The notes: generated by a model from the sequence alone, not told the origin. A stretch of DNA of 64,000 bases from Candidatus Berkelbacteria bacterium (GCA_026397175.1 JAPLVK010000013.1:8232-72231), one strand, 5' to 3'; shown: positions 2,829 to 33,400, counted from the stretch's first letter. A program made the numbers and translations.

Positions 2829-2929
2829 TTCGACTCACCTCGTTCGCTCATGGTCTTTGACCGTTCAATGGATTCACAGTAAACCATGAAGCTAAAGGAT
2901 ATGTTTTTAAAAAATAGGATAATAAAAAT

Positions 2930-3370: not shown

Positions 3371-3446
3371 CTTAAACTTGTGTGTTCGGATTGATTTATT
3401 CGGAATTTTATGTTAATTTTAACTATCAAATTATTTAAATTATAAA

Positions 3447-9027: not shown

Positions 9028-9032
9028 AAACC

Positions 9033-9476: not shown

Positions 9477-9581
9477 ATTACTCCTTATTATTTTTATTAA
9501 TTTCTCTTTTGATTGAACTTTAGCACAATAAAAGCCAAAATCAAGAAACTTAACTCAAAAATGGCCGACCAAACAAAGCTA

Positions 9582-9610
9582 TTGATTTGTTATTCTTTTT
9601 GTATTATAAT
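9582..9610 (+). promoter_or_regulatory. sigma70-like promoter for uvrA (TTGATT, 17 nt spacer, TATAAT)
   Basis: -35 at 9582-9587, -10 at 9605-9610, 24 nt before the ATG. Confidence 0.5.
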
Positions 9611-9634
9611 GCCTGCAGCTAATCGAATAATTTT

Positions 9635-12406
9635 ATGAAAAATATAAAAATTACCGGTGCCAGAACACACAACCTTAAAAATATTTCTCTTGAAATTCCA
9701 AAAGAAAAAATTTCGGTCATAAGCGGAATTTCCGGCTCGGGAAAATCTTCTTTGGCGTTTGACACAATTTTTGCCGAAGGCCAAAGACGATATGTCGAAA
9801 ATTTATCTTCGTACGCAAAACAAATTATCGGCGTTATCGAAAAACCGGATGTGGATTCGATAGAAGGCATACCACCGGCTATTTCGATTGACCAAAAAAG
9901 TATTGCTCGCTCACCTCGCTCTACTGTCGGGACACTGACTGAAGGATATGATTATTTACGACTGATATATTCAAGGTTTGGGGAGGTTAGATGTCCATCT
10001 TGCCGAAAAGTAATTTCGGGCGGCTCAAGCAAAAAGGTAGTGGAGGACTCATTGGAATTTATTGAGTCCGTTGATTCAAAAGATAAAAATGTAAGAATTT
10101 TTGCTCCAATGATAAGTGGACTAAAAGGCCAGCATCAATTGGTTTTGGATAAACTCTCAAAGTCCAATTTTAAAGCAATTCGGATTGATTCAAACATTTA
10201 TAAACCATTTGAGATTAAGAACCTGAAACTAGAACAATCCGACCCCCACTCGATAGGGGTCTGGACTTTGGATAAGGACTTTACAAAGATGTCAGTGGAA
10301 AACATAAAGTTAATCGAAAAAGCGATCCTGTTAGCCCTTGATCTGTCTTCGGACACAGTGAAAATTTGTGTGAACAATGAAGAGAAGGCATTTTCTAGCC
10401 ACCCCGGTTGTTTAAAATGTCAAATCAGTTTTCCGCCAATTCAGCCAAGATTGTTTTCATTTAATAGTCCTTATGGCGCATGTACTAAATGCCAAGGGCT
10501 TGGAGTAATTAAAAAAGTCATTCCGAATCTTGTAATCCCAAATGCTCGGCTAACCTTATCCGAAGGAGCAATTAGGCCATGGGCTCGGCTGGCCGGACAA
10601 AACAGCTGGCTCACAAAAACCCTAAATTCATTAGCGCAAAGGAATAATTTTTCTCTAGACACGCCTGTTATGAATTTGGGTGAAAAGGCGTTAAGAGCGA
10701 TTTTGTATGGTGATGCTGAATTTGAAGGAGTGATTAAAAACTTAGAAAAAAAATACAAGGAAACGGACTCCGAATATCTAAGAGGCGAGATAGAGCAGTA
10801 CATGGTCGAGAAAATGTGCGAAAAATGCGAAGGAAAGCGCTTAAACGAATTTGCGCTTTCCGTAACATTTCTGAATAAAAAAATATATGAGCTTTCCGAT
10901 ATGGAAGCCCAAAAGTTAGTGGACTTTATTGAAAAAAATAAGGATAATCTTCCAAACGAATCAAATCAGGCCGTAAACGAGCTTTTAAAACGACTTAAGA
11001 ACTTAATCTCGGTAGGTTTAAGTTATCTTGCTCTGTCCAGAAGTAGCGAAACGCTCTCCGGCGGAGAAGCGCAAAGAATTCGCCTCGGTGTTCAGTTTGA
11101 CTCGTTTTTAAGTGGTGTTTTATATGTTTTGGATGAACCGACAATCGGTCTTCATAATCTTGATACCGAAAAAATGATACATGCCTTTAAAAAATTAAGA
11201 GATGAAGGAAACACGGTAATAATTGTCGAGCACGATAAAACTATCTTGGAATCAGCTGACTATATTTTTGATATGGGTCCGGGCGCTGGAAAAGATGGCG
11301 GTTATCTTATAGCCCAAGGATCACCCGAGGAAATAAAGAAAAATTCAAAATCGGTTACCGGCCCATATTTATCCGGCGAAAAAAATATTCCATACCCTAA
11401 AAAAAGAAGAAAAAAATCGGACTCATTTTTAAAAATAAGCGGCGCACGACATAATAATCTCAAAAATATTGATGTTGAAATTCCGCTTGGACAATTTGTC
11501 GCCGTTTCCGGTGTCTCGGGTTCTGGAAAATCATCTTTAATTTATGATGTACTGGCCAAGGCGCTAGCGCAAAAGTTAAATCGTTCGGAAGAGGAGCCGG
11601 GTGAATTTAAGGAAATTCTTGGGTTTGAAAATTTAAATAAAGTAATTAAAATTGATCAAACCCCGATCGGTAGAACTCCAAGAAGTAATTTGGCAACTTA
11701 TACAGGGATATTTACTCCGATCAGAGAACTTTTTGCCGCAACCAAAGAGGCAAAAAATCATGCTTTTAACGCCAGCCAGTTTAGCTTTAACCTAAAAGGT
11801 GGAAGATGCGAAACATGTCGTGGTGATGGAGTTATTAAAATCGAAATGTATTTTATGCCCGATGTTTATGTTCCTTGTGAGGAATGCAACGGAGAACGGT
11901 ATAATCGTGAAACATTGGATGTTAAGTTTCAAGGAAAGTCGGTTTCGCAGGTTTTAAAAATGAGCGTTGATGAGGCCTCGGATTTTTTTAATGACTTTCC
12001 TGATGTGATGGAGAAAATCACGGTTTTGCAAAAAGTCGGTCTTGGATATTTGCCGCTTGGCCAAAGCGCGACAACGCTGTCAGGTGGAGAAGCGCAAAGA
12101 ATAAAATTGGCCGCAGAGCTCTCGAGACCGTCAACCGGAAAAACCATATATATTTTAGATGAGCCGACAACGGGGTTACACTTTGAAGATATTGGGAAGC
12201 TTTTGGAAATTTTGCAAGAACTTGTCGAAAGGGGAAATACTGTTTTAATAATTGAACACAATACCGATGTTATTAAAAACGCCGATTGGGTTATAGATAT
12301 GGGACCGGAAGGCGGCGAAAAAGGCGGCGAAATTATTGCCGAAGGGACTCCCGAACAAATTGCCAAAAAACCCAAATCAACCATCGGAAAATTCTTAAAA
12401 TTTTAA
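9635..12406 (+). CDS. uvrA: excinuclease ABC subunit A
   Basis: two ABC modules ([28 protein letters not shown] twice) plus zinc-finger cysteines. Confidence 0.97.
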
Positions 12407-12555
12407 CCAGACCTTTTGTAGTCCACGATTGATCTCACTCTCTTCATGTAGCTCAAGCTTTAGCTTGTTTTTTCACACTAAAGTGTGGGCTACAAAATCC
12501 CTGTAGTCCAAGCTTTAGCTTGTTTTACTCACACTAAAGTGTGGACTACAATCCC
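12407..12555. repeat. BIME/REP-like array, locus B: two full units of arm L, 15-nt linker, arm R, 9-nt linker
   Basis: gtagctcaagctttag cttgttttttcaca ctaaagtgtgggctac aaaatccct gtagtccaagctttag cttgttttactcaca ctaaagtgtggactac. Confidence 0.75.
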
Positions 12556-15128: not shown

Positions 15129-16016
15129 ATGGCAAAAACACTTAATGTTTTCAACAAAATAAGCTCACTTCGCAAAAGATATTATAAAGCGTCCACCGGT
15201 AAAGACGCGCTGGTTAAGCTTATCACTGAAGCCGAAGTGGCCGAGCAGGTCTATAACTCAAATGCGATCGAAAATAGCACTCTAACACTTGAAGAAACCG
15301 AAAAAATACTTATGCAGATCGATCTGGATAGATTTATCAATGAACGAGAAATATTTGAAGCAAAAAATCTGGCGCGAGTCGTATCGTACATCGGCAATAA
15401 GGCCAAAGAGCAAGAACTCAATCTCCCAATGATTTTGCTGCTTCATGAAATGTTGATTTCCAACATTCGCGACGATGTTGCAGGAAGGTTCAGAAAAGAT
15501 AACGAATTTGTTCGCGTTGGCAGTCATATTGCTCCTAACCCAAAAGAGGTGGTGGATCGTCTGTCAAAAATGCTGGCCGAATATAATGCCGCAAGTAACG
15601 AGAATATCATCAAGCGGATTGCAAAATTGCATCTTACTTTTGAATATACACATCCATTTGTCGACGGTAATGGTCGCATTGGCCGCGTTATTAATAATTA
15701 TTTATTGATTCGAGAAGGGTATGTGCCGATAAATATTAAATTTATTGATCGGAAAATGTATTACGAAGCTTTCAGAGAATTTGATTCTAAAGGCGAGACA
15801 GCGGTGATGGAAGAAATTGTCGGTAAAGCTTTGACGAATAGTTATCATAAAAGATTAGCGTATTTGGAAAACAAAAAGATTATTTCTCTTGTCGACCATG
15901 CGAAAAATAACAAAATTTCTCATTCCAATTTGATAAATAAGGCCAACCGTCAGACCATTGAGGCCTTTCTGGAAAAGAATATTTGGAAAATTGGCGTTAA
16001 AAATGATAAAGAATGA
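15129..16016 (+). CDS. fic: Fic-family AMPylator, class II (N-terminal inhibitory motif SNAIEN)
   Basis: HPFVDGNGRIGR Fic motif; [ST]xxxE[GN] inhibitory motif near the N-terminus. Confidence 0.85.
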   Translation: MAKTLNVFNKISSLRKRYYKASTGKDALVKLITEAEVAEQVYNSNAIENSTLTLEETEKILMQIDLDRFINEREIFEAKNLARVVSYIGNKAKEQELNLPMILLLHEMLISNIRDDVAGRFRKDNEFVRVGSHIAPNPKEVVDRLSKMLAEYNAASNENIIKRIAKLHLTFEYTHPFVDGNGRIGRVINNYLLIREGYVPINIKFIDRKMYYEAFREFDSKGETAVMEEIVGKALTNSYHKRLAYLENKKIISLVDHAKNNKISHSNLINKANRQTIEAFLEKNIWKIGVKNDKE

Positions 16017-16178: not shown

Positions 16179-17039
16179 TTGCAAAAAATAGGTAATATGA
16201 AAAAGAAAATAATTATCACTCAAGGTTTACAAATATATACATTTCAACAGAACAAAAATGATTATATTTCGTTGACTGATATGGCGAAGTATAAGGATGC
16301 AGAAAGAACTGATTATATTATCCAAAACTGGATGAGAACAATGGATACGATTGAGTTTTTGGGTATTTGGGAGCAGATCAATAATCCTAATTTTAAACCC
16401 ATCGAATTCGATGGGTTTAAAGAAAAAGCTGGTTCTAACAGTTTCTCTCTCACTCCAAAGAGGTGGATCGAAGCGGTAAACGCCATTGGTATGATAAATA
16501 AAGCTGGTCGCTATGGGGGCGGTACTTTCGCCCATAAGGACATTGCATTTGAGTTTGCCACTTGGCTTTCGCCCGAATTCAAACTCTATTTGATTAAGGA
16601 ATTTCAGCGCCTTAAAATCGAGGAGAATGAACGTCTGACTTTAGGTTGGGATGTTAAGCGACAGCTCACCAAAATCAATTACCGCATTCATACCGATGCC
16701 ATTCAAAAAAATCTGATACCAAAAGAAATTTCTAAGACACAAACAAAAATTATTTATGCCTCGGAAGCAGATGTTTTAAATATGGCGTTGTTTGGTTTAA
16801 CTGCCAAGGATTGGAAAGCGAGTAATAAGAGCAAAGCAGGCAATATGCGCGATTATGCGGATGTTTGCCAGCTCGTCGTCTTGGCGAATTTGGAAGGATT
16901 AAATGCTGAATTTATCAGACAGAAATTAACACAACCAGAACGACTCTTAAAATTAAATGAAATTGCTATAATCCAGATGAGTTCTTTGCTGGGCAGCCCA
17001 GGTCTTCAGAAATTAAAGGACAAGAATGCCAATATTTAA
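16179..17039 (+). CDS. KilA-N domain protein (phage-associated)
   Basis: ISLTDMAK...GGGTFAHKDIAFEFATWLSPEFKLY resembles KilA-N. Confidence 0.6.
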   Translation: MQKIGNMKKKIIITQGLQIYTFQQNKNDYISLTDMAKYKDAERTDYIIQNWMRTMDTIEFLGIWEQINNPNFKPIEFDGFKEKAGSNSFSLTPKRWIEAVNAIGMINKAGRYGGGTFAHKDIAFEFATWLSPEFKLYLIKEFQRLKIEENERLTLGWDVKRQLTKINYRIHTDAIQKNLIPKEISKTQTKIIYASEADVLNMALFGLTAKDWKASNKSKAGNMRDYADVCQLVVLANLEGLNAEFIRQKLTQPERLLKLNEIAIIQMSSLLGSPGLQKLKDKNANI

Positions 17040-17060: not shown

Positions 17061-17243
17061 ATGAAAATTAAAGACACACCAAAAATTAAGAAAGAAATTA
17101 CCCGTCAATGCGCTATCTGCGGGAAGAATATTTTAGTTAAGGTTTTTGTCAATGAAAAGTATATCGGTGGAAATTATTTTTGTGATATCCCAACAGTCGG
17201 AGAATATTGGGAATGTGATAAATGCTACAATAACTGGAAATAA
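17061..17243 (+). CDS. small Cys-rich (zinc-ribbon-like) protein, translationally coupled to hsdM
   Basis: CAIC...C...C..C pattern; stop 3 nt before the hsdM ATG. Confidence 0.4.
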
Positions 17244-17245
17244 TT

Positions 17246-18763
17246 ATGGCAAAAAATACATCAGCAAATATAGGGTTTGAGGAAAAGCTTTGGGCGGCGG
17301 CAGATAAGATGCGCGGCAATATGGATCCAGCCGAATACAAGCATATTGTTTTAGGTCTTATTTTTTTGAAGTATATTTCGGACTCATTTGAATTGCTTCA
17401 CTCCAAAATTGAGAAAGAAGATGGGAGCGATGAAGCCGAGGACAAGGATTATTATACCGCCGAAAATACTTTCTGGGTGCCAAAAAAATCACGCTGGAAC
17501 TATATTCGTGATAATGCTCGCAAATCTGAAATTGGAAAAATCATTGACGACGCCATGTACGCGATCGAAAAAGAAAATCCTGACCTAAAGGGTGTTTTGC
17601 GCAAAGATTTTGCTCGACCGGCTCTCGACAAACAGCGGCTTGCGGGAGTTATTGATGTTATAAGCCAAGTTGACATGCAGGAAAATCAATCTCGCGATAT
17701 CATCGGCCGCATTTACGAGTATTTTCTTGGCAGATTTGCTGGTAGCGAAGGTAAGGGCGGGGGTGAATTTTATACTCCGCAATGTATAGTTAAACTGCTG
17801 GTAAATATGATTGAGCCATACAGCGGCCGTGTTTATGATCCGTGCTGTGGTAGCGGCGGCATGTTTGTTCAGGCAGAAATTTTCAACCAAAACAGCGAAG
17901 GCAGGAATGACGATTTAATCGTACTTGGTGAAGAGTCAAACCATACCACTTGGCAACTGTGCAAAATGAATCTCGCACTACATCATGTTGACAGTTCTAA
18001 AATAAAGTATGGAAATAGTTTTCACAGCGATCAACATCCAGACCTAAAAGCTGATTTTGTTCTGGCTAATCCGCCCTTCAACGATTCTGATTGGGATGGC
18101 CAGCTTTTGCGAAATGATGTTCGCTGGAAATATGGTGTGCCGCCAACTAGCAATGCAAACTATGCTTGGATGCAACATTTCATCCACCATTTATCGCCAA
18201 CCGGAATAGCCGGTTTCGTTATGGCGAACGGTGCAATGGCGGCGAACCAGTCCGGTGAGGGCGAAATCAGAAAGAATTTAATCAAGGCCGGCCTAGTTGA
18301 TTGTATGATAGCAATGCCAGACAAGCTTTTTTATAATGTACAAATTCCTTGCTCATTGTGGTTTCTGTCGCGCGATCGGTACGATCACAAATTCCGTAAC
18401 CGTCATGATGAAATTCTCTTTATCGATGCGCGAAAAATCGGCAAAATGGTTGACCGTCGACATCGCGAACTATCGGAAGAAGATATTAAAAAAATATCGG
18501 ATACATATCACAACTGGCGAAGTACAAGCGGTAAATATGAAGATATCAAAGGATTCTGCAAAGCCGCGAAAATAGAAGAGGTGGAGAAAAATGGTTTTGT
18601 CTTAACCCCCGGTCGCTATGTCGGCACCGAGCTCGTCGAGGAAGACGACGAAGTTTTTGAGGAAAAAATGAAGCGATTAACCACCGAACTTAACCAGCAG
18701 TTTGAGCAATCAAAAAGAATGGAAGAAAAAATTAGTGATATTTGGAATAAAATTGAATATTAA
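17246..18763 (+). CDS. hsdM: Type I restriction-modification methyltransferase subunit
   Basis: HsdM N-terminal domain; [10 protein letters not shown] (motif I); LANPPFN (motif IV). Confidence 0.95.
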
Positions 18764-19484
18764 CCAAGCAGAATTAAAACTCCTTAAACTTTTAAAAGAC
18801 ATTAATCATTTCTATGTAGACAAATGTCTTGATTCTGTTGAAACTTGCAAATTGTCGTGTTTGCACGACAAGGTACTATTTGTTCTTTTTCTTAAAAGCT
18901 ATCAAACTTCCACGGCTATGTCACAAATCAGTGAGTATGATGAAGAATTATTAATGCTTGCAAGAACAATATTTGAAAATTATATTAATGCGAAATATAT
19001 ATTGAAAAACGACTCTGAAAAAATGGCTAAGTTGTTTTTAAACTTTGGTAAGATGTCTTCAATTAACTTATTAATTAAAATGAGTCCAGCCAGTAGCTCA
19101 AAGAAATTACTTTTACGATTAAAAATGTTACAGTCAGAGAGGGTGGCAGAAACAAAGAGTTTTGAAATAACAAGTCAATATAATTGGTCTTGCAAAACGC
19201 TGAAGTATATGGCTGAGTCTGTCGGATGCCTCGACGAATATGACATTACCTATAATTTATGTAGTATGTCAATCCACTCATGCTCTGTTAATCTTAAAAG
19301 GTATATTTTGCCCGAGGTTGAAAAGAATGATCAACTTAAAATACTTTCAAAATTAATTTCGATTAATAATAACTTAATGATGTTAGAGTTAGTATCTGAG
19401 CATTTTAATCTTGGGTTAGAAAACGATATTAAAGATTTTGCTAATGTCAAAAAAAGTATTGTTGATACATTAAGCTTTAAATAA
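18702..19484 (+). CDS. unknown protein embedded between hsdM and hsdS (the start may be the ATG at about 18918)
   Basis: ORF in a different frame overlapping the hsdM 3' end; no recognisable motif. Confidence 0.45.
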
Positions 19485-19539
19485 TAGCATTAATAATAAA
19501 AAAAATCCAAGATACCAAGCTGGGGCTAATTAGAGAGGA

Positions 19540-20178
19540 TTGGATAACAATAAAATGAAAACAGCCATGGATTATATAGTCAATCATAAAGAATATTTTG
19601 TGATTATTGCCCAGCTAGCAATAGCTCCATTGGTTATTGGTGTTATTTCCGGTTATGTGGCAAACGCGCTGTCAGCAAAAATTGATAAGAAGAAGTGGGA
19701 ACACGCAGAAAATTATTTTAATAAACAAGTCGAAATTCTATTAATGAAAACGCTACTATCTTTAAGAATTTATTCTGGGCTCAAGCTCGATAACGAATTT
19801 GCGGAAGGGAAGAAGGTTTTAGATTTTATAAAAATAAATCTCATCGATAATATTGAAAATTATAAAAAGACAATAATGTTTCCGACCGCAAAAGCTGGTC
19901 AGATGTTCGCTAGCAATCTAGCAGGTTTGAAGCAAGAGTCAGAGTCTTTGCATAGACAATTGCTTAGTTTTCAAATTCCAAATGCTAAACTCCTTAAAAT
20001 AATTGAGGATCTAATACAAGAGATCGATTTAATCCTAATCCCTTTTCAAGTGTTCCCAGAAATTATTGATCCTCAATATGCTAGTGATAAAAATCTAGAA
20101 TTAGATAGAAGTAGTCTATTTGTTAATTATAAAAACCTAGCAATTATTAGCTATAAGTTTATAAATGATATTACATAA
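19540..20178 (+). CDS. unknown membrane-anchored protein (one N-terminal TM helix) embedded between hsdM and hsdS
   Basis: hydrophobic segment IIAQLAIAPLVIGVISGYVANAL; overlaps the hsdS start by 14 nt. Confidence 0.5.
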   Translation: MDNNKMKTAMDYIVNHKEYFVIIAQLAIAPLVIGVISGYVANALSAKIDKKKWEHAENYFNKQVEILLMKTLLSLRIYSGLKLDNEFAEGKKVLDFIKINLIDNIENYKKTIMFPTAKAGQMFASNLAGLKQESESLHRQLLSFQIPNAKLLKIIEDLIQEIDLILIPFQVFPEIIDPQYASDKNLELDRSSLFVNYKNLAIISYKFINDIT

Positions 20179-21358
20179 CGACACAAAATTTAAAGAAACT
20201 GAGCTGGGACTAATTCCGGAGGATTGGGAAATTGATATGCTCGGAAACCGAGCCGATGTTATCATGGGCCAATCTCCTGAATCAAAATATTACAACAAAA
20301 ACCAAGAGGGCCTGTACTTTATGCAAGGGGTAAGAACCTTTGGCGAAAAATATCCGATCTTTGACACTTGGACGACAAGCGCAACTAAAACCGCACCAGC
20401 AGAATCAGTTCTTATGAGCGTCAGAGCTCCGGTTGGTGATCTAAACATTACTCCAGTAGAAATGTGTCTTGGCCGAGGCCTTGCTGCCATAAATGCTAAA
20501 AATGGCAATAACGAATACATCTATCAGCTATTAGAAGCATATCGAGATAAAGTCCTTGGGCAAGAGACGGGAACAGTCTATGGTTCTATTTCTAGAGATG
20601 ACATTTTTAACCTAGAACTACCTTTTGCCCCAAAAGATGAACAGCAAAAAATTGCGGAGGTTTTGGGGACGTTGGATGAGAAGATTGAATTGAATCACAA
20701 AATGAATAAAACTCTGGAATCCCTCGCCCAGGCGATATTTAAAAAATGGTTTATCGAGAATGCTGATCCGGACTGGGAAACTAAGAAACTTAAAGACATT
20801 TGTGAAATTAAAAATGGCTTTGCATTTAAAAGTGGAGATTATTCAAAAGAAGGCATTTTTCTATTACGCACAAGCAATTTTAACTCTGAAGGATACGCGG
20901 TTAAAAATGACCCCATATTTTTACCGAATAATTTCTATCAAACATTCTCAAATTACCGTCTCAAAAGATTTGATATATTGCTTGTAATGGTTGGAGCGAG
21001 TGTTGGTAAGCGATCATTTGTATTTTCAAATATATTGCCAGCACTTCAGAATCAGAATATGTGGAATTTCCGTGCGTATGACCAAAAGAATCAGTTCTTC
21101 CTAAAATTTATGATTGATCAAATTGTCGAATCGAATATTGGATCGGCTTCTGGCAGTGCTCGAGATTTTTTTCGTAAGGATTATTTCAGAGAAATCGAAT
21201 TCAACTTACCCAACCAGAATCTTCTTGATAAATTTTATGAAAGATTATTACCCCAGTTCGAAATGATTGATAAAAATATAAAAGAAATCGACACTTTATC
21301 GCAAATCCGCGATTCCCTTTTGCCAAGATTAATGAGTGGAAAACTGAGGGTAACTTAA
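20165..21358 (+). CDS. hsdS: Type I R-M specificity subunit with two target-recognition domains
   Basis: conserved central and C-terminal HsdS repeats (LPFAPKDEQQKIAEVLGTLDEKIELN; LPRLMSGKL). Confidence 0.9.
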   Translation: MILHNDTKFKETELGLIPEDWEIDMLGNRADVIMGQSPESKYYNKNQEGLYFMQGVRTFGEKYPIFDTWTTSATKTAPAESVLMSVRAPVGDLNITPVEMCLGRGLAAINAKNGNNEYIYQLLEAYRDKVLGQETGTVYGSISRDDIFNLELPFAPKDEQQKIAEVLGTLDEKIELNHKMNKTLESLAQAIFKKWFIENADPDWETKKLKDICEIKNGFAFKSGDYSKEGIFLLRTSNFNSEGYAVKNDPIFLPNNFYQTFSNYRLKRFDILLVMVGASVGKRSFVFSNILPALQNQNMWNFRAYDQKNQFFLKFMIDQIVESNIGSASGSARDFFRKDYFREIEFNLPNQNLLDKFYERLLPQFEMIDKNIKEIDTLSQIRDSLLPRLMSGKLRVT

Positions 21359-21373
21359 TTAATAAGGAGAAGT

Positions 21374-22096
21374 ATGAGCAAAAAGAATGACTCATTTATT
21401 TCTAGACAAATCATAGAAGTCCGTTTTAAAAACAAAGTATTCAATTTTATTGATATCAGGGGAGAGTTTGCTGATTATGTTGTTAATAAATTGAAGTACG
21501 AAGAAATTGCAATTGCTGGAAATAGGGTTGACTTTACAACACTTGATAGAACTAAAAAAAGCTTTTTCAGCTGGGAAAACTTCGGGATTCAGCTTGACGG
21601 AGAAGGTAATTTCGACAACTTCAATAAGAGTATTAGTGAAAATATTGTAATGCTCAAAAATTATAAAAAAATTTCTCTTCCAGAAATAATTAGGATCGGT
21701 ACGCGGATTACTGGGTTGTATCACTTCCCAAATAAGTCAGTCGCCCAAATCAAGAAATCATTCGATGATGTATTCTTCTCTCATCAGGCACTATTTGAGG
21801 AGAAATCTGGAATATCAATTAAGGATAATGGGCTTTTTGCAATGGATATAGAAAAAGAAGGATTAAAGGCTCATGTTAGCGTCGGGATAATGACTAAAGA
21901 TGAATCGATCGCAAAAGTTTTTTCGGATAAACTCTATGATGCTTACAATTACGAATCAGGAATTTTTCATGATATCGACTTATATGACGAGGCTCCAACA
22001 GTTAAAAACTTTGATGACCTTCAGTCGAGAGTATCATCTCAAATTGAAAAACTGAGACAGTTACAATTAGATATTGTAAAAAAACTGGAGCAATAA
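21374..22096 (+). CDS. unknown protein (240 aa) embedded between hsdS and hsdR
   Basis: strong SD AAGGAG; no recognisable motif. Confidence 0.55.
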   Translation: MSKKNDSFISRQIIEVRFKNKVFNFIDIRGEFADYVVNKLKYEEIAIAGNRVDFTTLDRTKKSFFSWENFGIQLDGEGNFDNFNKSISENIVMLKNYKKISLPEIIRIGTRITGLYHFPNKSVAQIKKSFDDVFFSHQALFEEKSGISIKDNGLFAMDIEKEGLKAHVSVGIMTKDESIAKVFSDKLYDAYNYESGIFHDIDLYDEAPTVKNFDDLQSRVSSQIEKLRQLQLDIVKKLEQ

Positions 22097-22097
22097 G

Positions 22098-22619
22098 ATG
22101 GACGAGAACCAGGCAGATCACACCCAAGGCTCTGCTATACAACCGGACTTTATTTCTGTTAAAAATTCCGGGGAAGAGACAAGCCCAGGAACTGAGAAAA
22201 ATATTGATAAAGTTATTGAGGACAAGGGTCCCGGGGGTTTTGTAATTGGCTTAGTTGATTCATTTGAGAAAAAATTTCCTACTGCCTTCTTTATTCTCGT
22301 GGTTGTAGGATATATTATTATCGAATCATTTGGTTCTCATAATATAAGAATTTACCAATACTCGGCAGTAATCTTGGTGAGCTTGATATTCTATTGTTTT
22401 TTAAAGTATTCGAGCGAAATTTTTGGTTGGTTTAGGCGGATTGGGTTAGAAGCAAAAAATAATCAAATAGCTACATATCTGGTCTCGTTTCTTGTTGTTG
22501 CGGTATTATGTATAGTATATTACTATTTCGGAACTCCGAAGTTATACTTTGAAAAGCGTCATAAGATTATCAATTCCGCTTGTGTGCAAACACAGCAATT
22601 TATTAAGGGGACTGAATGA
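22098..22619 (+). CDS. unknown small membrane protein (3-4 TM helices) embedded between hsdS and hsdR
   Basis: starts 2 nt after the previous stop; ATGA overlap with hsdR. Confidence 0.5.
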
Positions 22620-25600
22620 AATATACAGAATCAACATTAGAAGAAGCGACGAAGGAATGGTTTGAGGAATTGGGATACCAAACTATTTATGGGCCGGAGA
22701 TTGAGTCGGAAGCCGAAAAAGCCGAGCGGAAGGACTTTTCGCAAGTGGTTTTGGAAGGACGGCTAAAAAGTGCAATTGAAAAGCTAAATCCAAACATTCC
22801 AGCGGATGCAGTCGAAGAAGCATTTAAGAAAGTGGTTAATGTTACAAATGCTACTTCGCTTTTGATTTCGAACAATCAGCTTTTTCATAAATATTTGGTA
22901 AATGGAATTGATGTTGAGTATCGCCGAGACGATGGCACGATTGCTGGGGATAAAGTCTGGCTTATAGATAAAGAGAATATTGATAATAATGATTGGGTTT
23001 GGCTGGATCAGTTTACGGTAAAAGAGAACGAGATCCTGAAACAAGTTCAGGATGACACAAGGGTCAGGCGGCCGGATGTGGTGATATTTGTGAACGGTTT
23101 GCCACTCGCTGTTTTTGAACTCAAGAATTTGGCTGATGAAAATGTGGGGATCAAAGAAGCGTTCAATCAGTTTCAAACTTATAAAAACGATATTCCCTCG
23201 CTTTTTGCATATAGCGAACTTCTGGTAATTTCCGACGGGGCGGAAGCCAAAGTCGGCTCCATAACCTCGGATAATGATCGGTTTATGCGCTGGCGAAGTG
23301 TTGACGGCGCAGAATTAGCAAGCGATGCCGTGCCACAATTAGAAACTTTAATTAAAGGAGTGTTTGATAAAAAGCGCTTTCTGGACATTGTTTGTAATTT
23401 TATTGTTTTTAATACATTTAAAACCCCACTTCGCCAAGGTTACGCGGGGCAGGCATCCGGCGTAGAAAATATTGCCAAGATAGTACCGGCTTATCACCAG
23501 TATTTTGCAACAAACAAAGCCCTAGAAAGCACTATTCAGGCAACTGCAGATGATGGCGATCAGCGCGCCGGTGTGGTTTGGCACACACAGGGAAGCGGAA
23601 AGAGTTTAACTATGGCATTCTATGCCGGCAAGCTGATCCAAGCTTTGAAAAATCCGACGGTTGTTGTTTTGACTGATAGGAACGATTTGGACGATCAGCT
23701 TTTTGATACTTTTAGCAAGTGTTCCGACCTATTAAAACAAACACCTGTTCAAGCCAAGAACCGACGACACCTACGAGAGCTTCTGAAAGTAGCCAGTGGC
23801 GGGGTGGTATTTACTACCATTCAAAAGTTTTTGGACAAGGGTTTTCTGGAGAAAATGTTGTTAACTGATCGAAGAAATGCTGTAGTGATTGCCGATGAAG
23901 CCCACCGCAGCCAATATGATTTTATTGATGGCTATGCCAGAAGCATGAGAGAATCATTACCAAATGCTTCGTTTATTGGCTTTACGGGTACACCGATCGA
24001 GTTGTCCGACAAAAACACAAAGGCGGTTTTTGGCGGTTATGTCGATGTCTATGATATTTCCCAAGCTGTGGCCGATAAAGCAACCGTGCCGATATTTTAT
24101 GAAGCCAGATTGGCAAAAATTAATTTACTGGAAAGTGAAAAACCAAAAATTGATGCTGATTTCAATGATATTACTGAGGGCGAAGAAGTCGAAATGGTTG
24201 AGAAGCTCAAGAATAAATGGGCGCGACTTGAGGCGATGGTCGGTAGCGAAAAACGAATTAAACAAATTGCGCAGGATATTGTCGAACATTTCGAAAACCG
24301 GCTAGATGTGATGGATGGCAAGGGGATGATAGTTTCGATGAGTCGAAGAATTGCTGTTGAACTTTATGATGAAATTATTAAGCTTAGGCCGGATTGGCAT
24401 AACGATTCTGATAAAAAAGGTTTTATTAAAGTAATTATGACCGGTTCGGCCAGTGATCCATTGCCTTATCAAAAACATATTCGCAATAAAGAGTCTTTGC
24501 GCGAGATGGCAGATCGGATGAAAGATCCGAGCGATGAGTTGAAATTGGTAATTGTTCGGGACATGTGGCTGACAGGTTTTGATGTGCCAAGCATGCACAC
24601 AATGTACATAGATAAGCCGATGAAGGGTCATGGACTGATGCAGGCGATTGCTAGAGTTAATCGAGTTTATAAAGAGAAGCCGGGCGGTTTGGTTGTTGAC
24701 TATTTAGGCATTGCTCCGCAACTCAAGGAGGCCTTGGCTGAATATTCCGAAAACGATCAGGAAAACACGGCAATAGATCAGGAGAAAGCCGTTTCTGTCA
24801 TGCTTGAGAAATTCGAAGTTTTGCGAGGAATATTTCACGAGTTTGATTACGAGAGATATTTTAAGATGAAGCGATCTGACAAGACGAAATTTTTCGGTGA
24901 TGCTATGGATTTTGTTTTATCAATAGAGCCGGATAATGAAGAATCTAAAAAACGGTTTAATAAGGCAGTGGTTGAGCTATCAAAAGCCTTTGCTCTGGCA
25001 GTGCCGCACGAAAAAGCATTAAAGATTAAGGATCATGTCGGGTTTTTCCAGGCGTTAAAAGCATATGTTCGAAAAATTTCGCCTGTTTCCGGGCCGACTG
25101 AAGAAGATTATGATTTAGCCATCAAGCAAATTGTTTCAGATTCGATCGCATCCGGCGAAATAATCGATGTATTTAAGGCGGCTGGACTCGGTAAGCCAAA
25201 TGTTGAAATTCTCTCCGATGAATTTTTGGAGGAAGTGCGAGGGCTGGGCAGAAAAAATGTTGCTTTGGAAATATTAAAGAAGCTGCTGAATGATGAGATC
25301 AGATCGATTATGCGCAAGAATATGGTAAAAGGAAAATCATTTGCCGAGATGTTGGAAGCGACTCTGATTAAATATCAAAACCGAACAATAGAAGCGGCAC
25401 AGGTGATTGCCGATCTAATTGAACTGGCTAAAGAATTGAGAGGCGAAGTTAAGCGAGGAAAAGAGACGGGGCTGTCTGACGATGAAATTGCGTTTTACGA
25501 TGCTTTGGCCGAAAATGAGAGCGCAAAACTTGAGATTGGTGATGAAACGCTAAAAAAGATCGCCAAAGAGCTGGTTGTGATGATGCGAGAGAACGCGACG

Positions 25601-25759
25601 ATTGATTGGACATTGCGCGACGCAATTAAAGCAAGAATGAGAATCTATATTAAGAAATTGTTGAAAAAGTACGATTATCCGCCAGACAAACAGGAAGGCG
25701 CAACTCAGCTGGTTTTGTTGCAAGCCGAAACGATTGGAAAAGATTGGGGAGAAAAGTAA
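22616..25759 (+). CDS. hsdR: Type I restriction enzyme R subunit
   Basis: Walker A GSGKS; DEAH box [10 protein letters not shown]; overall HsdR architecture. Confidence 0.95.
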
Positions 25760-25870: not shown

Positions 25871-26272
25871 ATGAACTATCAGAAATCATACACCAACTAC
25901 AAACGCCCGCCGCTTTCGCCGCCGCCATATTTGTTTGGAATTGTTTGGCCGATTCTGTATGTGCTGATTATCATTTCATACGGATTTGTTTTCTATCAGG
26001 CGATTAAGGGAAATATTTCAGGGTTGCTTACTATCCCATTCATCATTAATCTAATTGCCAACGGACTTTTTACTTATTTTCAATTTAAGCTCAAGAATAA
26101 TCTTCTGGCTGCAATTGATATTGTCATTGTTCTTGCCACAATAATCCTGACTATGATTTTGATCTGGCCGGATTATCATTGGGTTACATATCTACAAATT
26201 CCGTATTTGATCTGGGTAATATTTGCCACCTATCTGCAATTCGGAGTCACAATCTTAAATCGCGATAATTGA
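25871..26272 (+). CDS. TspO/MBR-like membrane protein, short form
   Basis: RPPLSPPPYLFGIVWPILY... matches the TspO layout; SD AGGGGGG. Confidence 0.5.
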   Translation: MNYQKSYTNYKRPPLSPPPYLFGIVWPILYVLIIISYGFVFYQAIKGNISGLLTIPFIINLIANGLFTYFQFKLKNNLLAAIDIVIVLATIILTMILIWPDYHWVTYLQIPYLIWVIFATYLQFGVTILNRDN

Positions 26273-26312
26273 TCCAAACGCAATTTTTTTGGAAATAAAA
26301 TAATGGAGGAAT

Positions 26313-26663
26313 ATGGGCGAAATAGAAGGATCGATTGGTGTTGCTCAATATAAAGATTTACTTGATATGATGCCCGCAGAAAAACTACCGGTCTCGAGAG
26401 ATGAGCTAAGGATACTACAGGGTTCAATGAAATATTGGTATCCCGACTTTTATAATATGCACAGTCCTTTGGTCAAAGAATACGGAGATGGAGTGGTCAG
26501 AGCGACAAGGTTGCACCATCTTCTATCCGGAAGCAGCTTACCAATTTCAGATTGGGAGAAATTCAAAAACGATACTCCGGGTGGCGAAATGGGTGATTTT
26601 ACAAGATCGGTTGTCGAGAAATATGGTCCAGAAGACAAGGGTGCCTTAGACAGGACCGCTTAA
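26313..26663 (+). CDS. hypothetical protein
   Basis: ORF with SD GGAGGAA. Confidence 0.4.
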   Translation: MGEIEGSIGVAQYKDLLDMMPAEKLPVSRDELRILQGSMKYWYPDFYNMHSPLVKEYGDGVVRATRLHHLLSGSSLPISDWEKFKNDTPGGEMGDFTRSVVEKYGPEDKGALDRTA

Positions 26664-26832
26664 AAAGTACCCTTGACCCTTGGAGAAGCTACACTTTTAC
26701 CTTGACGATTATTCTGCCCGTATTAGCTAAAGCACCTGCCCAAAGCTGCTGCAACGCTGCAGGCGGGTAAAGTATCAGAGCTTTTGCAGACGGGCGATAA
26801 AGATTAGTAATAACCGATACTCTCGTGTTGGG

Positions 26833-26861
26833 GTTGACAAGGCAGGGGAAAAAAGTTACAA
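26833..26861 (+). promoter_or_regulatory. consensus sigma70 promoter (TTGACA, 17 nt spacer, TACAAT) with a leader of about 135 nt for rpoB
   Basis: read directly. Confidence 0.55.
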
Positions 26862-26998
26862 TTAAGTAAATATTTAAGAATCATAGAGAAAACAGCTTGT
26901 GAAAAAACATTTCTGCTAGAAAAAGCAGGAGGGGTTTGCTTGCGTTGGGCAAGGTAATTTAAGTTTTGTAACAAATCAACTTAAGGGGAATCTTCAAC

Positions 26999-29900
26999 AT
27001 GAAGACAAAAATTAGTTCGCAAGGAATCGAAAAAAATAGAATTAGTTTTTCAAAGGACCATGTCAAAGTTGAGCTACCGAATTTAATAGAAATCCAAAAA
27101 TCGTCTTATAATTGGCTTTTCAAGGAAGGCCTTCGGGAACTTCTAAATGAGATTAGTCCGGTAGATGATTTTACGGGCGAGGCAATGCGGCTTGAATTTG
27201 GTGAATATGCGCTAAGCGAACCAAAAGTTGACGAACTGACCGCAAGAAATAGAAATTTAACTTTTAAAGCACCCTTGATGTGCGAAGTTCTTTTGACGAA
27301 CAAAATAACTTCAAAGAAAAAGGTCTCGAAGGTTTTTCTCGGCGACTTTCCCGTTATGACAGACAGAGGAACCTTTATTATTAATGGTATCGAGAGGGTT
27401 GTTGTTTCGCAAATTGTAAGAAGCTACGGTGTAATTTTTATTTCCGAGGACTTGGCCGGTAAGAAGTATTTTGGCGCAAAGTTAATTCCGAGCAGAGGTG
27501 CCTGGCTTGAATTTGAAACATCAAACAAAGGTGTTATTTCGGTTAAGGTTGACAGAAAAAGAAAAATTCCGGTTACAACTTTCCTAAAGGCCTTGGGAAT
27601 GGAGTCAGACGCTCAAATTTTAAAGACATTTTCGGATGTTGACGATAATGCCGATACAAAATATATAGAGCAAACACTTCAAAAGGACTTAGCCAAGGAT
27701 CGCGACAGCGCGTTAATCGAGGTCTACAAAAGAATAAGACCTGGCGATTTGGCAACGGCCGAGGCCGCGAAGGTATTTTTGGACGCATTGTTTTTTAACC
27801 CAAAAAGATACGATTTGGGGCGCGTTGGAAGATATAAAATCAATCGTCGCCTAGGTGTTAATATTAAGGAAAATTCCGAGGGAAGGGTTTTGAGAATAGA
27901 TGATATTATTGCGATTATCAAAGAAATTATTCGCTCAAATAATGATCCTATGGCTGAGCCGGATGATATTGACCATTTAAAAAACAGAAGGGTTCGCGCA
28001 GTTGGAGAGCTCGTGCAATCACGATTAAGGGTTGGATTTTTGAGAATGGAGAGAATTATCAAAGACAGGATGAGCGTTGTGGAGACCGAGAACGCCACTC
28101 CGGCCCAGCTCGTCAACTCAAGACCGATTGTCGCTGTTTTGCAAGAATTTTTTGCATCATCGCAAATGTCGCAGTTTATGAACCAAACAAATCCGCTTGC
28201 GGAGCTTGAACATAAAAGAACTTTGTCGGCAACCGGACCCGGTGGATTGTCTCGCGAAAGAGCGGGCTTTGAGGTTCGGGATGTTCACCAATCGCATTAT
28301 GGTAGAATTTGCCCGATCGAAACACCGGAAGGACCCAATATCGGGCTGGTTGGGTATTTGGCATCATTTGGAAAAGTTAACGAATATGGGTTTATCGAAA
28401 CGCCGTACCTTGAAGTCGAAAAAGTAAACGGGAAACCAAGAGTTACTAAAAAGATTGTTTATTTAGACGCATCAGACGAGGAAAAAACAACAATCGCGCC
28501 GGCCTCGACCAAAAAAGACGATAAAGGTTTTATTTTGGGAAATAGGATTCCGGTGAGAAAATTTGGTTCACCTTCGATCGAATCCGTTAGCACAATTGAA
28601 TATATGGATGTTTCGCCCAAACAAATTGCGTCAATTACGGCGGCACTGATTCCTTTTATTGAACACGATGATGCTGTTAGGGCAAATATGGGATCAAATA
28701 TGCAGAGGCAGGCAGTTCCTGTTATTTGTCCTGATTTTCCAACTGTCGGTACCGGTATGGAAGAAGACGCCGCAAAATCATCCGGGCATGTGGTTCAATC
28801 CCCTGTTGACGGGGAAGTAGTAGAGGCCTCGGCTGATAGAATCGTTGTTCAAGATAAGAAAAAACAAAGATCAAATATCCAATTAAGCAAATTTACTCGT
28901 TCAAATCAAGGGACATGTATCAACCAAAAAATATTGGCAAACCAAGGAGATCAAGTTAAGCCGGGTGATGTCCTTGCCGATGGGCCGGCCACCGCTCAAG
29001 GTGGCTTAGCTCTTGGAAAAAATATCCTCGTTGCTTTTATGAGCTATAGGGGTGGAAATTACGAAGACGCAATTATTATCTCGGAGCGACTCGTAAAAAA
29101 AGATGTATTATCTTCAATCCACATCGAAAAATATTCCATAGAAGTCAGAGATACAAAGCTTGGGCCGGAAACAATCACCAGAGATATTCCAAATGTAGGT
29201 GAAGAAGCCCTATCAAATCTGGATGGCGAAGGAATTATACGCATCGGAGCGGAAGTCGAAGCCGGAAACATTTTGGTAGGTAAAATTTCACCAAAAGGAG
29301 AAACCGAGCTTTCAGTCGAAGAAAAACTCCTTAGGGCAATTTTTGGAGAAAAAGCAAAAGATGTTAAGGATTCTTCTTTGCGGTTGCCGCATGGCGAAAA
29401 AGGCAAGGTAATTGAAGTAAAACTTTTCTCAAAAGACGCAAACGATGAACTCCCGGAAGGTGTCAGCCAAATGGTTGAGGTCTCTGTCGCACAACTTAGA
29501 AAAATTTCAGTTGGCGACAAACTAGCCGGAAGACATGGTAACAAAGGTGTTATTTCTATGATCTTGCCGCAAGAAGACATGCCCTATATGGAAGATGGAA
29601 CACCGGTTGATATAATTCTTAATCCGCTTGGCGTTGTGTCCAGAATGAACCTTGGTCAGATTCTTGAAACACACCTGGGACTCGCGGCGGCAAAACTCGG
29701 GTTTCAAGTTGCTACGCCGGTTTTTGACGGAGTTCCAATTTCAAAGATCAAGGAATTATTAAAAGAAGCAAATTACGACGAAGATGGAAAGATGGTTTTG
29801 TATGATGGAAAAACCGGAGAGCCGTTTGGTTCGAGAATCACTGTCGGCTACATGTATATATTAAAACTTGCTCACCTTGTTGACGATAAAATGCACGCCA

Positions 29901-30430
29901 GATCTGTCGGGCCGTATTCGATGGTTACACAGCAGCCACTTGGTGGAAAAGCGCAATTTGGGGGGCAGCGATTCGGAGAGATGGAGGTCTGGGCGCTCGA
30001 GGCATATGGTGCCGCTCACATCTTGCAAGAAATGCTAACGATTAAATCAGATGATGTATTGGGAAGATCCAAGGCCTATGAATCAATTATCCGTGGCGAA
30101 AAAATCGAAAGGCCATCAGTTCCGGCGTCGTTTAATGTACTGGTAAGAGAGCTACAGGGTCTTGGTTTGTCGCCTGAAATGATCGGGGTCGAAATACCCG
30201 TAGATAATTTCGACGAAGATAAACCGAGGGAATATATTAGACCAAATGTCGGGAACAATGCTAATAAAATTGAAGAAGTAAAAGAAGAAGTAAAAGAAGA
30301 AATTAAGGAAGAAATTAAGGAAGAAATAATCCCCGTGGAAGAAAAAGAAGATAGGGAACTAACCGAGATATTTGCCGGACAAGAAGAAAATCCACCAAAA
30401 GTAGAAATTACGGAGGAGGAAAATGCCTAA
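26999..30430 (+). CDS. rpoB: RNA polymerase beta subunit with an acidic tandem-repeat C-terminal tail
   Basis: conserved beta-subunit regions throughout. Confidence 0.98.
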
Positions 30431-33400
30431 TCAAACGACTTTAAAAGCCGCTAAGGAAATGTTTGTCAGGGACTTTGATAAAATCAAGTTGACCGTTGCC
30501 AGTCCCGAAGAAATTCTTGAATGGTCTTATGGGGAAATCACCAAACCAGAGACCATAAACTACAGAACTCAAAAACCGGAACGGGATGGGCTTTTTGACG
30601 AAAGGGTTTTTGGGCCCGTTAAGGATTGGGAGTGTTATTGCGGAAAATACAAAAAAATCAGATATAAAGGTGTGATTTGCGACCGTTGCGGAGTAGAAGT
30701 TACGAGAAGTTCAGTCAGACGAGAAAGAATGGGGCACATGCAACTCGTTGTTCCTGTTGTTCATGTTTGGTATATCCGTGGGGGGGGTGGCGTGATCGGA
30801 TCGGTTTTGGATATGACGGTTTCGGATATCGAGTCGGTTTCGTACTTTGCCGCTTATGTAATCCTAGAAGTAGACGAGCAGTTGAGAAATGAAGCACTCG
30901 AGCAATTAAGCAAAGAATATGAAGAAGCAAAAAAAAGCTCGGAATTTAAAAATAATCCGATTGCTCTTCAAAAACTTGAAGCGATCTATAAAAACTCAAA
31001 ACAAGAGTTAACTCAACTGGTATCAAAAAAAGTGCTTTCTGAATCCGAATTCACTTCAATCTCATTAAAATACGGACAAGTTGCAAGGGTCGGTATCGGA
31101 GCAGAAGCGATTTTAGAGCTTCTTAAAAATGTGGATCTTGATAAGCAAGTTGAGGACCTAACCCAAAAACTTGAAAATCAGGTTACCGCCAACAGGAAAA
31201 AGATTTTGCGATCCCTTAAATTATTTAAGGATATGAAACTGGCCGGTGTAAAACCGGAATGGTTGATATTGAGAAATCTACCTGTTATTCCACCGGATCT
31301 TCGACCGATGGTGCAGTTGGACGGCGGGAGATTTGCGGCATCTGACTTAAATGACCTTTACAGGAGAGTTCTTAATAGAAATAACCGCCTAAAGAAACTT
31401 TTGACAGCTGGAGCGCCGGAGGTAATTTGTAGAAATGAAAAAAGAATGCTTCAAGAAGCAGTTGACGCGCTTCTTGATAATAATGCCAGACGCGGTAAGG
31501 TTGCGGTCGCAGGAAATCAGAGAAAATTAAGGAGTTTATCTGATATTTTGCGAGGAAAGCAAGGAAGGTTTCGCCAAAACTTGCTTGGGAAAAGAGTTGA
31601 CTACTCTGGAAGATCAGTTATTGTTATCGGACCTGACCTAAAATTGAGCCAATGTGGAATTCCAAAAGTAATGGCGTTAGAGCTCTTCAAAACATTTGTT
31701 ATTGCCAAGCTTATTGCTGACGGTTATGTTTACAATGTTAAAAATGCCACAAAAATGATCGAGCAAAAAGACCCGATTGTTTGGGATATTCTGGAATTAG
31801 TTACCGCAAAACATCATGTCATGTTAAATAGAGCACCGACTCTTCACCGCCTTGGAATTCAAGCATTTGCTCCGGTGTTAATTGAAGGAAAGGCAATTCA
31901 GATTCATCCGTTGGTTTGTCAGGCTTTCAACGCCGACTTTGATGGAGACCAAATGGCAGTTCATGTTCCGCTTTCGGATAATGCCAGAAAAGAAGCCGAG
32001 GAGATTATGCTTTCGTCAAAAAATCTCTTAAAACCAGCGTCGGGTGAACCAATTTCTACCCCTCGATTTGACATGATTTTGGGCTGCTTTTATATCACTG
32101 ACATAAAGAGCGATGAGCAAAATCCGAGATCATTTTCCGGAAAAAACGAAGCTATTATGGCATGGCAAACCGGAAATATCGACTTGAGAACTAAAATAAG
32201 AATGAAGACAGAAGATAATATCTCCGAGTCCGACTCTGAAGTTTTAGACAAAGGCGAATACCAGATGGTTGAAACATGCGTCGGAAGAATTATCTTTAAC
32301 AATATTCTTCCCGAAGAGATAAGATTTATTAACAAAACAATCGATGGTAAAGCCATGAAAGCCATCATTGCAAAGGTCTTCAAGGATTATGGTTCAAAAG
32401 AAACCGCAGAATTACTTGATAGAGTAAAGTCCCTAGGATTTGAGCATGCTACATTGTCGGGCTTATCAATTGGGATGGATGACATTGTCATACCTGACGA
32501 AAAGGTTGAAATTGTTGCAAAAACAAATGCAAAAAACGAAGAAATTGAGACGCTGCTTAAAAGAGGTCTTATAACACCCGAGGAAAAACGGCTTAAGATT
32601 ATCGATTTCTGGAATGATGCACGATCACAAATCGAAAAAAACATGCTCAAATGTTACAGCAAAGACAATCCGGTAAATGTTTATGTTACATCCGGAACAA
32701 GGGGATCTGTGGCACAGTTGACTCAAATGGCGGGCATGAAGGGTCTTGTTGTGAACCCGGCGGGTGAAATTATCGAAATTCCGATAGTTTCAAATTACAA
32801 AGAAGGTCTTACGGTTTTCGAGTATTTTATTTCATCTCACGGTTCCAGAAAAGGAAGATCGGATACTTCACTTCGAACATCAGATGCAGGATATTTAACC
32901 AGAAGGTTAGTAGATGTTGCTCAAGAAGTTATCGCGAGAGAGACCGACTGTAAGACAAAAGAAGGGCTTGAGGTTATAAGAGGTGAGTCGGAATCGTTTG
33001 GGGAATCGTTCTCCGAAAGAATTAACGGCAGAGTTGCTCTTAATGATATTAAGATCAAAAACAAAGTTATTGTGAAAGAAAACGAAGAAATTACTAAGGA
33101 AATTGCCGAAGAAATAGAAAAAAGTGATCTCCCTTGCGTTTTCGTCAGATCCGTCACATATTGCCAAACAAAACACGGTGTTTGCCAAAGGTGTTACGGA
33201 CGAGATCTCGGAACCGGTAAACTAGTCGAATTAGGTGTGGCGGTTGGTGTTATTGCCGCTCAAGCTATTGGTGAGCCGGGAACGCAGCTAACAATGAAAA
33301 CATTCCATCTTGGAGGTGTCACAGGGGAAGACATTACATCGGGTCTACCTCGAGTTGAGGAATTGTTCGAAGCCAGACGACCTAAATTTGAAGCACCAAT

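Follow-up and report, generated by a model that had tools for sequence, protein, structure and literature searches.

Two adjacent genes embedded between hsdS and hsdR of a type I restriction-modification (R-M) operon, here named unk3 and unk4, proved to be a two-gene module that recurs at R-M loci of three classes. The operon occupies positions 17246-25759 of the 64,000-nt stretch of DNA that we analysed (the window; GCA_026397175.1, JAPLVK010000013.1:8232-72231), which comes from a metagenome-assembled genome (MAG) of Candidatus Berkelbacteria within the Candidate Phyla Radiation (CPR). Seven plus-strand open reading frames (ORFs) follow one another in the order hsdM, unk1, unk2, hsdS, unk3, unk4, hsdR, so that one cassette fills the slot between hsdM and hsdS (slot 1) and another that between hsdS and hsdR (slot 2). 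The operon is a new instance of a known phenomenon, the embedding of genes in R-M operons, and unk3-unk4 (locus tags NTZ65_01470 and NTZ65_01475) is, as far as our tools and library show, an undescribed family. We tentatively read the pair as an auxiliary defence module and weigh that reading below against regulatory, selfish and hitch-hiking roles.

Genomic contexts of the unk3-unk4 pair

Context was read from 16 loci with enough flanking sequence. A small membrane protein followed the unk3 homologue wherever the DNA continued, and 16 of these proteins were unk4 homologues, lying directly after the unk3 homologue in L010, L012, L014-L018, L019, L022-L025, L027-L029, L033 and L035. In L038, the most distant unk3 case, an unmatched protein with two transmembrane (TM) helices took this place instead. 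Spacing from unk3 to unk4 ranged from -14 to +6 nt among measured junctions, and the unk4 side carried a GY..(F)G motif in its first TM helix. The features that define the module were found in the window, where the junction is +1 nt, and in the other loci with measured junctions.

The pair lay inside or beside an R-M system in 11 of the 16 informative loci. Two of these were type I operons, the window and L012, with the pair between hsdS and hsdR. Seven were type III loci (L014, L015, L016, L021, L022, L026/L027 and L033), with the pair directly after mod (N6_N4_Mtase, 570-660 aa) and, in all except the short contig L022 (6/7), with res (ResIII plus RE_endonuc, ~900 aa) following. The two type II contexts placed the pair directly after a methyltransferase and an MvaI/BcnI endonuclease (L023) and after a type II/Eco57I-like methyltransferase (L025). 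R-M-linked pairs came from several phyla and were not restricted to CPR, as they also occurred in MAGs labelled Gammaproteobacteria (L014). Assuming that 5% of random genes have neighbours of this kind, the binomial probability of at least 11/16 would be ~2e-11, a rough figure since the loci partly share ancestry and were not randomly sampled.

Position relative to the restriction gene was equally regular. The pair stood immediately before the R or Res gene in all eight type I and type III loci that showed that gene, and the unk4 stop overlapped the R-gene start as ATGA in 5/7 measured junctions (window, L012, L015, L027 and L033). The type III Res proteins fell into two groups only ~24% identical to each other, and type I, type II, type III and non-R-M contexts were interleaved in a rough neighbour-joining tree of unk3, which together partly support more than one embedding event for the pair. 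The cargo usually diverged faster than its scaffold (HsdR 68% vs unk3 39% identity; Res 74% vs unk3 43%), and the GC content of the pair was 3-8 points under that of its flanks.

At five loci (L010, L017/L029, L018, L028 and L035) the pair occurred with no R-M gene within ~6 kb, so the module can stand alone. In L010 it was preceded by RadC and followed by a PIN protein resembling PADLOC PDC-S34 and then DUF559, while in L017/L029 a large serine recombinase and an SNase+LTD defence candidate lay nearby. L018, from a MAG labelled Gammaproteobacteria, held a stand-alone pair whose neighbours had no annotation.

Comparison of these loci thus shows unk3-unk4, as judged from gene order and junctions, to be a conserved and mobile two-gene module linked to R-M systems of three classes and translationally coupled to the restriction-subunit gene. 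A preliminary description of the window had put both cassettes forward as candidate immunity modules that might recur in related genomes. That expectation was strongly upheld for unk3-unk4 at type I, type III and type II loci and failed for the slot 1 cassette, which was not conserved as a pair.

Two further observations were made at the type III loci. In L033 (7250-9227), res downstream of the pair was split into two ORFs (273 and 378+ aa); the cause may be misassembly, a frameshift or a phase-variable tract. In L016, the type III operon that bears the pair has a RhuM-family gene upstream.

The unk3 and unk4 families

A word-index homology search with unk3 returned unk3 alone. A full HMMER scan of 1.84 billion representatives gave a family of 86 clusters at E<=1e-3 (45 at E<=1e-10), nearly all of whose members were full-length at 235-255 aa. 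unk3 had no significant match in Pfam, NCBIfam, PHROGs or PADLOC-DB 2.0, and the family has no Pfam model. The NCBIfam model TIGR04255 weakly matched 3/49 unk3 relatives (best E 0.0011) and did not match unk3 itself at E<=0.1. Searches of the unk3 profile against PDB sequences yielded nothing significant, hhalign of the two halves of the protein against each other detected no sequence-level internal repeat, and there were no matches to unk3 by tblastn among 72,556 plasmids and 50,697 phage records or to the unk3 alignment in IMG/VR.

Within the family, residues E15, R107 and G109 were invariant and G30, G71, D151, G171 and D202 nearly so. An AlphaFold2 (AF2) model built from a 63-sequence alignment was very confident, with a predicted local distance difference test score (pLDDT) of 95.8 and a predicted template-modelling score (pTM) of 0.90, and its secondary structure placed the conserved residues on or beside beta strands flanked by helices. 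Foldseek comparison of the model gave template-modelling scores of at most 0.36 against PDB and at most 0.52 against BFVD, with only weak TBP-like or platform-like matches in either. Since these scores are so low, the modelled fold has no close solved relative and gives no functional clue.

unk4 was predicted from hydropathy to consist of a ~55-aa hydrophilic N-terminus and TM helices at ~60-78, 91-109 and 124-142. Its homologue P0005 was 46% identical, residues G11, G71, Y72 and Y88 were invariant in a 13-sequence alignment, and it had no family match in Pfam, NCBIfam, PHROGs or PADLOC-DB 2.0. The N-terminal tail (window 22098-22260) has a conserved T-x-G motif, of which G11 is the invariant residue, with a hydrophobic position ~8 residues on and a low-complexity acidic/Ser/Thr linker between the motif and the first TM helix. 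That the T-x-G motif might be a docking peptide for unk3 is speculation.

Operon structure

The genes of the operon, all on the plus strand of the window, are as follows.

17246-18763, +, hsdM: type I methyltransferase subunit, 505 aa, intact (Pfam, PADLOC, motifs)
18702-19484, +, unk1: DUF5677-family protein, slot 1 (Pfam PF18928)
19540-20178, +, unk2: membrane-anchored protein with one N-terminal TM helix and a ~165-aa soluble domain, slot 1 (TM prediction, one homologue)
20165-21358, +, hsdS: specificity subunit, 397 aa, two target-recognition domains (Pfam, PADLOC)
21374-22096, +, unk3: soluble alpha/beta protein of 240 aa, upstream gene of the module, slot 2, with its own AGGAG ribosome-binding site
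22098-22619, +, unk4: membrane protein of 173 aa, three TM helices behind a hydrophilic N-terminal tail, downstream gene of the module
22616-25759, +, hsdR: restriction/translocase subunit, 1047 aa, intact (Pfam, PADLOC, motifs)

The ORFs and their profile identities bore out the gene order and coordinates given in the preliminary description, and hydropathy agreed with its TM predictions for unk2 (one helix) and unk4 (three). Its account of short gaps and overlaps held for the tight junctions, namely the 14-nt overlap of the unk2 stop with the hsdS start, the 15 nt between hsdS and unk3 that contain the AGGAG Shine-Dalgarno sequence, and the ATGA shared by unk4 and hsdR. It was less secure at the two slot 1 genes, whose starts are uncertain. 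unk1 overlaps hsdM by 62 nt if it starts at TTG 18702, but TTG 18852 and TTG 18861 are alternatives and the Pfam match begins only at aa 56. The spacing of unk1 and unk2 is 55 nt if unk2 starts at TTG 19540; ATG 19555 or 19567 is the more likely start, and 19567 is favoured by the homologue and by the public gene call.

A scan of the operon for promoters and terminators gave counts near the shuffled expectation, which is chance level and uninformative, and contained no strong internal match to either. Co-transcription of all seven genes is plausible, given their spacing and the absence of strong promoter or terminator signals within the operon in that scan. Neither cassette was flanked by convincing direct or inverted repeats in a repeat search. 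An imperfect inverted repeat of 18 nt (16/18 matching; 18849-18866 and 22584-22601) brackets the unk1-unk4 segment and is probably not meaningful, as chance alone should, by our estimate, produce about one such pair in 9 kb. A hairpin at 18852-18871, with an 8-bp stem followed by a T-rich stretch, lies ~90 nt past the hsdM stop, inside the 5' extension of unk1 and at the onset of its DUF5677 match, where it shares its position with an alternative TTG start; behind hsdM it may act as an attenuator or a weak terminator, or it may be due to chance.

All four unk ORFs are real genes because unk1 matches DUF5677, unk2 has a 52%-identical syntenic homologue, and unk3 and unk4 have many homologues; this conservation ruled out spurious ORFs.

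The hsd genes

The type I R-M system looks intact and functional from its gene content. HsdM matched Pfam N6_Mtase (1.8e-106) and HsdM_N (1.9e-29) and PADLOC MTase_I (5e-204), and its translation contains the motifs DPCCGSGG and NPPF. HsdS matched Pfam Methylase_S in two stretches and PADLOC Specificity_I (2.4e-70) in both halves. HsdR contained Pfam HSDR_N, SWI2_SNF2, ResIII, T1R_D3-like and T1RH-like_C, matched PADLOC REase_I with 1077 bits across residues 2-1042, and carries the motifs PD...ELK, GSGKS and DEAH. The operon therefore has the features of a type I system, with an N6-adenine methyltransferase bearing the HsdM N-terminal domain, an HsdS with two target-recognition domains, and a full-length HsdR comprising a PD-(D/E)xK nuclease at the N-terminus, an SF2 motor and an assembly domain at the C-terminus. 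Inactivating lesions, which the preliminary description had named as a possible objection, were not found in the translations or profile matches of hsdM, hsdS or hsdR, and decay of the genes was ruled out by their full length and intact motifs.

The slot 1 cassette

unk1 is a member of DUF5677 (Pfam PF18928; 1.4e-18, 68 bits vs a cut-off of 27.1), with aa 56-204 aligned to profile positions 1-161 of 166. Literature searches on DUF5677 and on TIGR04255 yielded nothing of use. unk1 had no match in PADLOC, NCBIfam, PHROGs or PDB sequences, and none by tblastn against the plasmids and phages. Its GC content was 29.7%, vs 42% in hsdM and hsdR, and its single-sequence AF2 model was unusable (pLDDT 38). 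In Bacillota, defence contigs associated with serine recombinases are enriched in DUF5677 (adjusted P 2e-92).

In unk2, hydropathy placed the single TM helix at ~aa 20-44, ahead of the soluble domain. A word-index search of 5.8e9 proteins found only one homologue, P0003 (52% identical), which is encoded in L007 at the same position and with the same 14-nt overlap with hsdS. unk2 had no family match in Pfam, NCBIfam, PHROGs or PADLOC-DB 2.0, and nothing significant in a PDB sequence search. Cassette 1 is not kept as a pair, as only unk2 recurs (L007), with different partners. The slot 1 pair of a DUF5677 protein and a membrane-anchored protein is most likely further variable defence-island cargo.

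The preliminary description had held that none of the four embedded proteins belongs to a recognisable family, which stands for unk2, unk3 and unk4, all without significant match, and not for unk1, given its DUF5677 assignment. Its view that both insertions share one architecture of a soluble and a small membrane protein did not survive comparison, because the cassettes are mutually unrelated and the likeness in layout is loose. The assignment to housekeeping families that it had named as a refutation was not obtained: none of the four proteins fell in a housekeeping family, and none matched PADLOC-DB 2.0.

Related type I operons and cargo turnover

Two type I operons related to that of the window allowed the slots to be compared at the following positions.

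Window: slot 1, 18764-20178; slot 2, 21374-22619
L007: slot 1, 8670-10606; slot 2, 11698-12432
L012: slot 1, 218-1531; slot 2, 2678-3908

HsdM and HsdR of L007 were 76% and 82% identical to those of the window, and HsdR of L012 was 68% identical. HsdS was only 31-33% identical to the HsdS of L007 and L012, which fits a different predicted specificity. The hsdM-hsdS slot of L007 held 192-aa and 205-aa proteins together with the unk2 homologue, and its hsdS-hsdR slot held an unrelated 244-aa protein with two TM helices and no unk3-unk4 pair; none of the 192-, 205- and 244-aa proteins was detectably related to unk1 or unk3. In L012, a 256-aa and a 160-aa protein preceded hsdS, without significant BLAST match to unk1 or unk2, and homologues of unk3 (39%) and unk4 (34%) lay between hsdS and hsdR, the latter with the ATGA overlap onto hsdR. 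Because the window, L007 and L012 share a scaffold and differ in cargo, both positions behave as cargo slots with turnover. Each slot of the three related operons holds at least one predicted membrane protein, most of them mutually unrelated.

Surroundings of the operon

Only 2 nt separate the hsdM start codon from the end of a 60-aa ORF (17061-17243, +) whose two CxxC pairs are zinc-ribbon-like. The gene calls of the public contig L001 include this ORF, and its product might be a small regulatory protein acting on the hsd operon. Directly upstream of the operon are a Fic/DOC-family gene (15129-16016, +) and a KilA-N-domain gene (16179-17039, +). Immediately downstream (25871-34217) come a TspO-like gene and the core gene rpoB, followed by a long, probable rpoC ORF. 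The L007 operon is flanked by UvrA and acetyltransferase genes on one side and by acetyltransferase and HD_4 genes on the other. Because the flanks differ between the window and L007, the whole operon has moved between genomic contexts. Elsewhere in the window, at ~53000-55500, GC content falls to 29.7% (53-54 kb), and the switch of the genes from + to - is accompanied by a reversal in the sign of GC skew.

Comparison with known systems

The preliminary description regarded type I R-M operons as normally contiguous, a view that is out of date given how frequent embedded genes are (bioRxiv 10.1101/2024.01.29.577857). In that "guilt-by-embedding" survey, Payne, Hughes, Fineran and Jackson (2024) reported thousands of genes embedded in type I R-M, BREX, DISARM and Hma systems in RefSeq. 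More than half of the embedded genes had no assigned function, several of those tested defended against phage, and 145 PDC models were added to PADLOC (bioRxiv 10.1101/2024.01.29.577857). Its candidates (HEC/PDC) resemble ours in being uncharacterised same-strand genes nested in a type I R-M operon, whereas type III and type II R-M systems lay outside its scope. Against PADLOC-DB 2.0.0, including the PDC and HEC models, unk1-unk4 matched zero families at E<=0.1. CPR MAGs are poorly represented in RefSeq.

Other embedded systems share the position and differ in their proteins. TgvAB, a two-gene GmrSD-like type IV restriction system, interrupts the type I R-M operon of Vibrio cholerae VPI-2 as a two-gene cassette, works alone and complements R-M (PMC11411939). 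Its proteins are DUF262/DUF1524-type nucleases; unk3 and unk4 lack both nuclease and NTPase domains, and unk4 is a membrane protein. PrrC of the EcoprrI locus, like RloC, is an anticodon nuclease encoded within a type IC hsd locus, and inhibition of restriction sets it off (PMC12707154). It too is embedded in a type I R-M operon and, as an abortive-infection gene, is the model "guardian" of restriction. PrrC is a single protein with ABC-ATPase and anticodon-nuclease domains, no such domains were detected in unk1-unk4, and PrrC/RloC-like cassettes were rejected because no ATPase or nuclease family matched these proteins at E<=0.1 in Pfam, NCBIfam or PADLOC. The rlo genes of Campylobacter jejuni, as far as PMC11411939 relays the work of Miller et al. 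2005, are variable, strain-dependent ORFs without assigned function at fixed positions between the hsd genes; on that account they are alike in placement and belong to different protein families.

Function of the pair

Guilt by association leads us to read unk3-unk4 as an autonomous auxiliary anti-phage or anti-plasmid defence module co-expressed with the restriction subunit, a reading we hold tentatively and at a little under an even chance. It is the most economical because the pair also occurs alone and beside mechanistically unrelated restriction enzymes, and defence-like neighbours in 2/5 of the non-R-M loci (L010 and L029) favour it, as does the precedent that genes lodged in R-M systems frequently encode defence systems (bioRxiv 10.1101/2024.01.29.577857; TgvAB, PMC11411939; PrrC, PMC12707154). 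Under such a role, unk3 would be a cytoplasmic sensor or enzyme and unk4 a membrane effector under its control, which would either abort infection by permeabilising the membrane or block DNA entry, and the module would back up restriction once a phage escapes or inhibits it. The idea of a sensor and a membrane effector arises because a conserved soluble protein with enzyme- or sensor-like invariant residues is paired with a small multi-TM protein, as in RexAB. RexA and RexB of phage lambda are a soluble protein of ~250-280 aa followed by a small multi-TM protein, and the soluble sensor is thought to activate the membrane channel and abort infection. The likeness of unk3-unk4 to RexAB is architectural only; neither family appeared in the Pfam, PADLOC or PHROGs scans or among the PDB fold matches. 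We grade the specific membrane-effector mechanism for unk4 below the auxiliary-defence reading itself.

Several observations count against a defence role. The pairs in L028 and L035 sit in plain housekeeping neighbourhoods, and no homology to a proven defence protein was found (none in PADLOC-DB 2.0 including PDC, NCBIfam or Pfam; one weak match in PHROGs, E 0.0014). The sample is small at 16 loci, biased toward what the pattern scan and look-up returned, and includes some shared ancestry. For the neighbouring cassette, a tested E. faecalis DUF5677 gene was not among the 5/9 candidates active against the six phages tested. The membrane-effector role proposed for unk4 is pure analogy.

The regular placement of the pair would also suit an accessory or regulatory part of the R-M system, one that gates translation or activity of the R subunit (establishment delay or restriction alleviation) or tethers the complexes at the membrane site of DNA entry. 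Such a part would be expected where the pair is found, directly upstream of R or Res in the eight type I and type III loci with a visible gene, with the unk4 stop overlapping the R start in 5/7 measured junctions and the position kept across R-M scaffolds only ~24% identical. However, five loci carry the pair with no R-M gene within ~6 kb; in L023 it comes after a type II endonuclease, whose mechanism is unrelated to that of the type I and type III motors; and it is difficult to see how one pair could partner physically with enzymes of three classes. A related type I operon also does without the pair, the L007 slot being filled by the unrelated 244-aa protein. We therefore consider a regulator or tether rather unlikely, though worth keeping in view. 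Hitch-hiking cargo with a non-defence role, for example an envelope or small-molecule role, would owe its vicinity to R-M genes to shared mobility in small, island-poor CPR genomes. The housekeeping surroundings in L028 and L035, the many CPR hosts with compact genomes and the lack of defence-family homology in our searches agree with this, but R-M adjacency extends to the MAGs labelled Gammaproteobacteria (L014), and chance co-mobility hardly explains why the pair associates with R-M systems of three types and is so tightly coupled in translation to the R gene; we judge it unlikely.

A selfish addiction module, in which a membrane toxin and a soluble antidote stabilise themselves and the mobile R-M island in the manner of a toxin-antitoxin system, would account for the translational coupling of unk3 and unk4 (overlaps of -1 to -14 nt in most loci), the sporadic spread across phyla, the GC content 3-8 points under the flanks and mobile contexts such as the serine-recombinase island of L029. 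A highly conserved 240-aa soluble partner with enzyme-like invariant charged residues is nonetheless atypical for an antitoxin, and addiction modules are usually common in the plasmids, phage records and IMG/VR sequences in which the family had no match, which makes this explanation very improbable. A bolder reading would make unk3-unk4 a dedicated, portable "restriction guardian" just upstream of the R gene in type I, type III and some type II systems, which senses failure or inhibition of restriction, or the resulting DNA damage, and fires a membrane effector. It would then be a generic second line of defence built from a previously undescribed fold and a membrane protein, a proposal to which we give only a small chance.

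Significance

Embedding in R-M operons is a recognised route to new immune systems, and the operon itself is unsurprising. The pair within it is a rare family (86 clusters among 1.84 billion representatives) that has neither a Pfam nor a PADLOC model and offers a concrete experimental target. It is tied to restriction enzymes of three mechanistic classes, in CPR bacteria and Proteobacteria, and the published survey of embedded genes did not extend to type III or type II systems, where the pair is also embedded. To our knowledge, CPR bacteria largely lack clustered regularly interspaced short palindromic repeats (CRISPR). Should unk3-unk4 prove to control the restriction subunit, it would represent a novel type of regulatory element for R-M systems; if it acts in defence or as a guardian, it would be a new membrane-acting system and would shed light on how CPR bacteria layer their defences.

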